Positions 30,900 to 31,679 of a stretch of DNA of 64,000 bases are shown piece by piece. Source of the DNA: a phage. The translations under genes were made by a program, and so were the position numbers. Location of the stretch: the sequence record OZ335959.1; one strand, given 5' to 3'. Every line of letters starts with the position of its first letter. Within the stretch, counting starts at the first letter, position 1. The notes below the pieces were generated by a model. That model did no database searches, was not told where the DNA came from, and saw only the letters and a program-made list of their open reading frames with translations.

Positions 30900-31679
30900 A
30901 TGGCAGTAACAGGACCGTGGGTAGGATCGTCTGCAGTAGTTAATACAGGACAAAATTGGATGGGCGGCGCGGCCCAACGATTAAGAATGGGTGCTCCATT
31001 TTGGATGAGTAATATGATAGGTCGATCTGTTGAAGTAATTCATACACTTGGAGCAGACCATAACTTCAATGGTCAATGGTTCCGAGATAGATGTTTTGAG
31101 GCAGGTAGTGCACCTATAGTGTTTAATATTACTGGAGATTTAGTATCATATTCTAGAGATGTTCCTTTATTCTTCATGTACGGAGATACACCTAATGAAT
31201 ACGTTCAACTGAACATACACGGCGTAACGATGTATGGTCGTGGTGGGAATGGTTGGGCCGCTGGTGCAATTGGAGCATCTGATGGCGGTGTATGTATCCA
31301 GAATGATATAGGTGGACGTCTGCGAATTAATAATGGCGGAGCTATTGCCGGTGGCGGCGGTGGCGGCGGTGGTTATTCACAAGCCAACAACTGGGCGGGA
31401 AAATATGTTTGTGGTGGTGGCGGCGGTCGTCCATTCGGCTTAGGCGGAAATAATGGTGCTCGATGGCCTGGTGGTAATGCTAGTTTGACGTCTCCGGGTG
31501 CTGGCGGTAATACTGGTACAGGGTATTATGCAGGTGGCGGTGGTGAAGTTGGTCAGCCAGGACAATATGCTAATCCAGGTGCTGGTTATTCAACACCTCC
31601 GACAAGTCCTGGTGCTGCTGTAGCAGGATCAGCTCCAACATGGCAGAATGTTGGAGCAATATATGGTTCAAGAGTATAA
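30900..31679 (+). CDS. 38: gp38 receptor-binding adhesin (T2-type, glycine-rich motifs)
   Basis: 259 aa from ATG at 30900 (GGAGG 6 nt upstream; track used TTG at 30888); several poly-Gly motifs between variable segments. Confidence 0.85.

Follow-up and report, generated by a model that had tools for sequence, protein, structure and literature searches.

Gene 38 of the phage sequence record OZ335959.1 lies at 30900..31679 of a 64,000-nucleotide (nt) stretch, referred to here as the window, and encodes 259 amino acids (aa) followed by a stop codon; it is carried on the plus strand, as are all features described below unless stated otherwise. Judged from Pfam and PHROG matches and from alignment with the structures 9V85 and 6F45, its product, gp38, is a receptor-recognising adhesin of the T2 type and an allele of the kind found in phages PP01 and AR1. 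Taken as a whole, the reading that this adhesin is borne on the tip of gp37, the distal protein of the long tail fibre, and binds OmpC of the Escherichia coli O157 type is considered highly probable. In most T-even phages the host range is set mainly by gp38, which is an engineering target for therapeutic and diagnostic phages.

Family identity and glycine-rich fold

Both adhesin domains of Pfam are present at full length in gp38, with Gp38_N (PF21721) covering residues 1-40 (profile 1-40/40; E=2e-21; 76.3 bits, cut-off 25) and GP38 (PF05268) covering aa 45-259 (profile 1-218/218; E=5e-72; 242.7 bits, cut-off 25). The protein belongs to PHROG 2056, annotated as 'tail fiber protein; host specificity' (E=3e-109), and no NCBIfam family was matched by gp38 or gp37, which is uninformative given that this library is made for bacterial annotation. 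Residues 41-259 are identical at 218 of 219 positions (99.5%) to PDB 9V85, in which the receptor-binding domain of PP01 gp38 was solved by crystallography at 2.1 Å (Terasaki et al., mBio 2026; PMC12892980), the sole difference being S236 here in place of N236, and the S16 adhesin 6F45_D can be aligned to aa 1-257 (E=4e-53). These matches bear out the T2-type identity proposed in a preliminary description of this DNA, which had been made from the sequence alone.

Three regions can be laid out along the protein. The N-terminal attachment domain (aa 1-40; 30900..31019), which coincides with Gp38_N and contains W7, W20 and W35, would dock on the gp37 trimer at its tip. It is followed by the N-terminal part of the β-helix domain (aa 41-113; 31020..31238), which opens the crystallised receptor-binding domain and is 100% identical to both PP01 and AR1. 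[quoted passage not shown] By homology, the fold of gp38 is therefore described as a β-helix combined with a PGII sandwich.

Glycine accounts for 23.9% of gp38 and for 32.9% of residues 114-259, the highest share among the 45 window open reading frames (ORFs) of at least 150 aa (median 5.7%). The poly-glycine tracts reported in the preliminary description were found at G151-G158 (31350..31373), G172-G176 (31413..31427) and G212-G215 (31533..31544), and runs of at least 8, 5 and 4 glycines occurred together in only 4 of 200,000 shuffles of gp38 itself. The first tract, encoded by 2.7 copies of a 9-nt unit, corresponds to PGII helix 3 of S16 gp38, 151-GGGGGGGG-158 (PMC6851490), and the second belongs to a GGGGGRPFG motif that is conserved in all aligned gp38 proteins with one substitution in S16 (GGGGGRPLG). 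The runs lie in the same register in gp38 of T2, T6, S16, FL44, fPS-90 and AV119, and since they are conserved in this way in distant homologues they are not a chance feature. Shorter GG motifs are also present, and the segments between the runs vary across eight reference adhesins, in agreement with the alternation of glycine-rich motifs and variable loops that had been described. The G+C content rises to 0.52-0.545 in the glycine-rich region, against 0.357 for the window, because of the glycine codons. Slippage or phase variation at the eight-glycine run, which the 9-nt repeat might have allowed, is not supported, as the run length is fixed in all close relatives.

Two alternative identities were weighed against that of a T2-type adhesin. 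A composition of 24% glycine is of low complexity, and a tandem repeat encodes the longest run, so that the ORF might be a low-complexity artefact or a decaying gene. However, the ORF is intact, running from ATG at 30900 to TAA at 31677-31679 with 259 codons before the stop, and does not differ in length from its counterparts in AR1, PP01, KNP5 and ECp13; synonymous codon differences exceed non-synonymous ones (6:3 for AR1, 13:2 for KNP5 and 8:2 for ECp13), an excess consistent with purifying selection; the glycine runs keep their register in distant homologues; and a protein almost the same in sequence is functional and has yielded crystals (PMC12892980). We regard an artefact or a decaying gene as scarcely conceivable. 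The other alternative is suggested by the name of the gene, since gp38 of T4 is an assembly chaperone that aids the folding of gp37 and is then released, so that virions lack it. The window gene has nothing in common with it but its name and its place between genes 37 and t, although a folding role might also be counted in its favour, as T2-type gp38 perhaps also assists the folding of gp37, as reported for S16. Against this, T4 gp38 (NP_049864.1) shows no BLASTP similarity to the window protein (E=17) and falls in a different family, PHROG 105 'tail fiber assembly' (E=6e-45), with which the window gp38 has no match; a tblastn search for a T4-type gp38 across the whole 64-kb window found none (best E=4.8); and the gp37 of the window carries an intramolecular chaperone domain at its end instead of the His-rich receptor-binding tip of T4. 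The preliminary description had already set the 183-aa T4 protein apart from this 259-aa one, a distinction upheld in both length and sequence; the outcome that it had named as a refutation, a closer alignment to the T4 chaperone, clearly did not occur. T4 gp38 is an unrelated protein and no component of the virion, the T4 gp37 tip itself binding the receptor (PMC12892980), and gp38 has been established on the virion for T2, S16 and PP01 (PMC12892980, PMC6851490). A chaperone identity of the T4 type for the window gp38 was rejected on the evidence of the sequence and appears extremely improbable.

Receptor loops and the predicted OmpC receptor

The five receptor loops of PP01 gp38, A to E, have been defined in PMC12892980, and each has an identical counterpart in the T2-type adhesin of the window. 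These are loop A (W119-I124, WAAGAI; 31254..31271), loop B (Q161-V170, including Q161, K168 and Y169, with Y159 just upstream; 31380..31409), loop C (N184-W189, NNGARW; 31449..31466), loop D (N204-Y209, NTGTGY, including G208 and Y209, AR1 and KNP5 having R208; 31509..31526) and the main specificity loop, loop E (N225-S231, NPGAGYS, including A228 and Y230; 31572..31592). Residues Y159, Q161, K168, Y169, G208, Y209, A228 and Y230 all occupy their PP01 positions. An alignment of the variable segments with gp38 of phages of known receptor, as suggested in the preliminary description, gave 100% identity over the loops with PP01 and 97% with AR1 (G208R only), against 11-26% with adhesins using other receptors, while scaffold identity to the latter was 42-99%; the set comprised T2 (OmpF/FadL), T6 and FL44 (Tsx), fPS-90 (OmpF and lipopolysaccharide, LPS), AV119 (OmpA) and S16 (Salmonella OmpC). 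The only difference from the PP01 receptor-binding domain is codon 236 (31605..31607), identified by alignment, which is AGT (S236) here and AAT (N236) in PP01. S236 is also found in AR1, KNP5, EC121 and NBEco003, and a sample of the 90% protein cluster to which gp38 belongs contained 9 S and 10 N at this position.

The contacts of these loops with OmpC(O157) have been mapped experimentally in PP01 (PMC12892980). Y159A abolishes infectivity, whereas Q161L, K168N and Y169G lower it, and K168 and Y169 were proposed to touch LPS sugars. In photo-cross-linking, G208 reached loop 5 of OmpC(O157) and Y230 reached loop 7 (V304-R308). A228 makes a hydrophobic contact, and neither Y159, Y209 and A228 nor the conformation of the backbone at Y230 can be spared, whereas G208 is dispensable, its deletion or replacement by Ala being tolerated. 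On the receptor side, a four-residue insertion in OmpC loop 7, GVIN, which is without counterpart in K-12, is needed for PP01 adsorption, and plating and adsorption were regained when GVIN was put into loop 7 of K-12 OmpC with the loop-4 GFTS deleted (all PMC12892980).

For the window gp38 we predict O157-type OmpC, whose loop 7 bears the GVIN insertion, as the receptor. This prediction is strong although inferential, as all loops and all tested residues are identical to PP01 and the residues that differ from PP01 or from AR1 occur in the other of these two OmpC users: G208 is common to PP01 and S236 to AR1, so that each residue separating the window gp38 from one is found in the other. The receptor of AR1 is OmpC of E. 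coli O157:H7 (Yu et al. 2000, as reported through the review PMC9603124, ref. 83). It has also been found that closely related gp38 proteins share a receptor, that gp38 phylogeny predicts the receptor, and that OmpC binders form a small clade (PMC12032242). The statement in the preliminary description that receptor specificity could not be read from the sequence is, for this allele, outdated by the identity of its five loops to a protein with mapped contacts (PMC12892980), and is further countered by the predictive value of gp38 phylogeny (PMC12032242). The host range would be expected to comprise Shigella strains and E. coli strains of the O157:H7-like kind but not K-12: on the homology-based assignment, the phage should be active on the former, and its adsorption to K-12 through OmpC should be slight.

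Several points weigh against this reading. The receptor is assigned by homology, and the exact 259-aa sequence was found only in metagenome contigs. Single substitutions can redirect gp38 proteins: Q206L in RB68 gp38 shifts the receptor from OmpF to OmpW (bioRxiv 10.64898/2026.04.02.716166), and PP01 variants with Q161H/R or W189R infect an ompC-null strain (according to work cited in PMC6027323). As single loop substitutions can switch the receptor, near-identity to PP01 is strong evidence and not absolute proof. In addition, S236 lies five residues past loop E and is paired with G208 in a combination distinct from those of PP01 and AR1.

Alternatively, the protein might be a T2-type adhesin with a receptor or host range shifted from that of PP01 and AR1 by the association of G208, A228 and S236 with an AR1-type attachment domain; the shift might take the form of a preference for a different OmpC allele, a stronger dependence on LPS or OmpC-independent adsorption. 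Receptor-binding-domain variation within the 90% cluster is indeed most frequent at positions 207, 208 and 210 (loop D), at 228 (the tip of loop E) and at 236, that is at or beside the experimentally mapped contact residues, and the receptor switches of other gp38 proteins (10.64898/2026.04.02.716166; PMC6027323) set a precedent. On the other hand, all five loops are those of PP01, G208 is dispensable in PP01 (PMC12892980), S236 is the residue of AR1, which, on the account given in PMC9603124 (ref. 83), also uses O157 OmpC, and S236 and N236 each occur, among the records sampled, in phages isolated on O157 and in phages isolated on Shigella. A shifted range is accordingly judged quite improbable. 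The clade polymorphisms may also track allelic variation of OmpC loops 5 and 7 in E. coli and Shigella, in which case the host range of the G208/A228/S236 allele, on its AR1-type attachment domain, would be measurably unlike those of PP01 and AR1; we consider this unlikely. As a separate observation among relatives in the cluster, members P0003, P0004, P0008 and P0012 combine S198A with a change of loop D from TGTGYY to TGQ-YW and with N or H at 228, a position at which A228D abolishes infection in PP01 mutagenesis. The co-occurrence of these changes suggests either that they are compensatory or that this sub-allele recognises another variant of OmpC.

The gp37 partner and modular exchange

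Gene 37 (27557-30868) encodes a gp37 of 1103 aa, equal in length to gp37 of AR1, KNP5 and ECp13. Its predicted mature part (aa 1-992; 27557..30532), delimited within the ORF, would form the distal long-tail-fibre trimer whose C-terminal tip carries gp38, and the remainder (aa 993-1103 plus stop; 30533..30868) is a C-terminal intramolecular chaperone domain matching Pfam Peptidase_S74 at aa 993-1052 (E=2e-12), with auto-cleavage predicted before S993. An SDIRVK motif starts at S993, 111 residues from the C-terminus, and SDxRxK is found 99-113 aa from the C-terminus of gp37 in AR1, PP01, T2, T6 and S16, every T2-type gp37 compared. In T4 gp37 the SDxRxK motif is absent and the protein ends in its His-rich receptor-binding tip. 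In the published account, C-terminal cleavage of T2-type gp37 precedes its capping by gp38 (PMC3157838), a picture which the SDxRxK motif and the S74 domain of the window gp37 fit; we infer that the protein cuts off its last 111 residues at R992/S993 before being capped.

W7, W20 and W35 of the attachment domain are conserved in all T2-type gp38 proteins compared, with equivalents at W7/W20/W36 in S16 and at W9/W22/W37 in T2 and T6. In S16, the base of gp37 has three equivalent pockets, which the three tryptophans occupy (PMC6851490). The residues at the mature end of gp37 co-vary with the N-terminus of gp38, such that DAYSTF in gp37 is paired with ...TGQNW... in gp38 in the window, AR1, KNP5 and ECp13, and DSYSTY is paired with ...TGDHW or ...TGDPW... 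in PP01 and AV119. A lock-and-key pairing of the gp37 tip and the gp38 N-terminus was reportedly described by Trojet et al., and the co-variation seen here corresponds to that pairing.

Compared with PP01, gene 38 of the window differs at 25 of its first 100 nt (window 30900-30999 vs L002 (PP01) 4501-4600) and at 11 of the remaining 680, and this concentration of differences marks a sharp recombination boundary between the attachment and specificity modules inside the gene. Within the 90% protein cluster, one receptor-binding domain is joined to at least three types of attachment domain, including MAVVGVPGWIGSS... and MAVVGIPGWIGTS....

The following mechanism is proposed from these features and from published work on PP01, AR1, S16 and T2, the location in the virion, the geometry of docking, the cleavage of gp37 and OmpC as the receptor being extrapolated from the latter. 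The gp37 C-terminal chaperone of 111 residues would cut itself off before S993, allowing the fibre tip to mature, after which aa 1-40 of gp38, with W7, W20 and W35, would plug into the gp37 base, a single gp38 monomer thereby covering the tip that the gp37 trimer forms on the distal long tail fibre. The remainder of gp38 would form a β-helix whose glycine-rich segments extend as a sandwich of PGII helices, so that the outermost part of the fibre displays loops A-E. Of these, loop E would then enter a cleft between extracellular loops 5 and 7 of O157-type OmpC (the GVIN variant), with loops D and B keeping it in place and with K168/Y169 possibly touching LPS sugars. Such reversible binding to OmpC would be the first step of adsorption and would set the host range.

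The family is said to have been known since the studies of T2 and T6 gp38 adhesins by Henning's group (1987), and the modular evolution of gp38 was reportedly addressed by Trojet in 2011. The family, its modular evolution, its fold (Dunne 2018, 6F45; Terasaki 2026, 9V85) and the receptor contacts are all published, and the gene belongs to known biology; all that is new is the allele, a trivial one that joins G208 and S236 to an AR1-type N-terminus. Its closest counterparts are PP01 gp38 (BBC14589.1) and AR1 gp38 (BAI83267.1). The former has the same length, gene order and gp37 cleavage motif and differs over residues 33-259 only at 236, but shows 10 aa differences in all, 9 of them within aa 4-32 of the attachment domain, and is accompanied by a gp37 that is 6 aa longer and ends in DSYSTY rather than DAYSTF. 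AR1 has the same type of attachment domain, a 1103-aa gp37 and DAYSTF beside the cleavage site, with 98.8% nucleotide identity in gene 38; it differs at 3 aa (G22V, G208R in loop D and S257P in AR1), and its gp37 shaft is mosaic relative to that of the window, with 70-88% identity in several 50-aa blocks. The S16 gp38-gp37 tip (PDB 6F45; Dunne et al. 2018; PMC6851490) shares the Trp attachment domain, the β-helix and PGII sandwich, the eight-glycine run at 151-158, the SDxRxK chaperone in gp37 and the single gp38 per gp37 trimer, but its gp38 has 249 aa, ~45% overall and 11% loop identity, recognises Salmonella OmpC and comes from the genus Gelderlandvirus. The gp38 proteins of T2 (OmpF/FadL) and T6 (Tsx) share the family, the alternation of glycine motifs and hypervariable segments, the conserved C-terminus and the locus, whereas their hypervariable loops are unrelated (14% identity), their gp37 tips are different and their attachment domain, in which VP is inserted (MAVVGVPGW...) and Trp stands at 9/22/37, is of another type.

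Two further observations concern gene 37. A 21-nt tandem repeat (2 copies, 90% match; window 30801-30841) codes for a heptad-like segment, in all probability a short coiled coil, with which the chaperone domain of gp37 ends. Among AR1, PP01, KNP5 and ECp13 the shaft of gp37 is a pronounced mosaic, in patches at 27900-28500, 28700-28900 and 29000-29300 of the window with up to 64 differences per 100 nt, as against 0-4 per 100 nt in the receptor-binding part of the adjacent gene 38. PP01 deletes bp 1980-2650 of gene 37 during laboratory adaptation (PMC6027323), a shaft region that maps to roughly 29536-30206 of the window.

Locus, start codon and expression context

The gene order 36-37-38-t is canonical for this locus, with gene 36 (gp36; 26892-27548) upstream and the holin gene t (31710..32366; Pfam Phage_holin_T, E=7e-117) as the usual downstream neighbour. 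Farther downstream, the records of relatives carry minus-strand annotations for asiA, arn and motA, and ORFs on that strand of the window agree in size and position with asiA, asiA.1 and arn. The 20 kb around gene 38 are 96.5-96.9% identical to the Tequatroviruses KNP5, ECp13 and Sfk20 and ~94% identical to AR1; for gene 38 itself the nucleotide identity is 98.8% with AR1, 98.7% with ECp13 and 95.4% with PP01. Records of the phages with the most similar gene 38 give E. coli O157:H7 or Shigella as the host. From these identities, gene 38 is placed in a Tequatrovirus of the AR1/PP01 group.

A program-made ORF list opens gene 38 at TTG 30888, 12 nt earlier than the ATG at 30900, which would yield 263 aa. 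The ATG is nevertheless the true start, because a Shine-Dalgarno GGAGG (30890-30894) stands 5 nt upstream, because the same start is annotated in AR1, PP01 and ECp13, and because the Pfam Gp38_N alignment begins at residue 1. The T6 record (AP018814.1, L003 4489) lets gp38 begin with LEKIMAV..., from an in-frame start that precedes the ATG by 12 nt, and the TTG at 30888 of the window is the equivalent of that upstream start; the T6 annotation is probably a misassigned start codon.

Gene 38 is most likely translated from a late 36-37-38 transcript, the likely start of which is marked by a late promoter motif of the T4 type, TATAAATA, situated just before gene 36 (26861..26868), its promoter function being deduced from the T4 late-promoter consensus. 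No further TATAAATA occurs between 26869 and the start of gene 38 (30900), and sigma-70-like matches are at chance level (19 found vs 19.6 expected), so that a promoter specific to gene 38 is not supported. A C(UUCG)G tetraloop hairpin (30872..30889; fold -14.1 kcal/mol) separates the stop codon of gene 37 from the Shine-Dalgarno sequence of gene 38, with the GGAGG directly 3' of it. A hairpin occupies the same 37/38 position in T4, T2, T6 and S16, with differing stems and loops, and an Rfam scan of the whole window at gathering thresholds found no curated RNA family, the 37/38 hairpin included. The 64-kb window contains 12 stem-flanked CTTCGG hairpins, the others being located at 26837 and 46133 on the plus strand and at 2010, 2889, 20330, 37019, 39843, 40072, 45353, 56004 and 61528 on the minus strand.

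Finally, a patch at 34000-34200 of the window, near the 5' end of an arn.3-like ORF (33661-34122, minus strand) and beyond it, is unlike all four close relatives, with 39-40 differences per 100 nt relative to AR1, KNP5 and ECp13 and 159 relative to PP01, the latter value indicating an indel or a replacement. The DNA flanking this patch is about 97-99% identical to that of the relatives.

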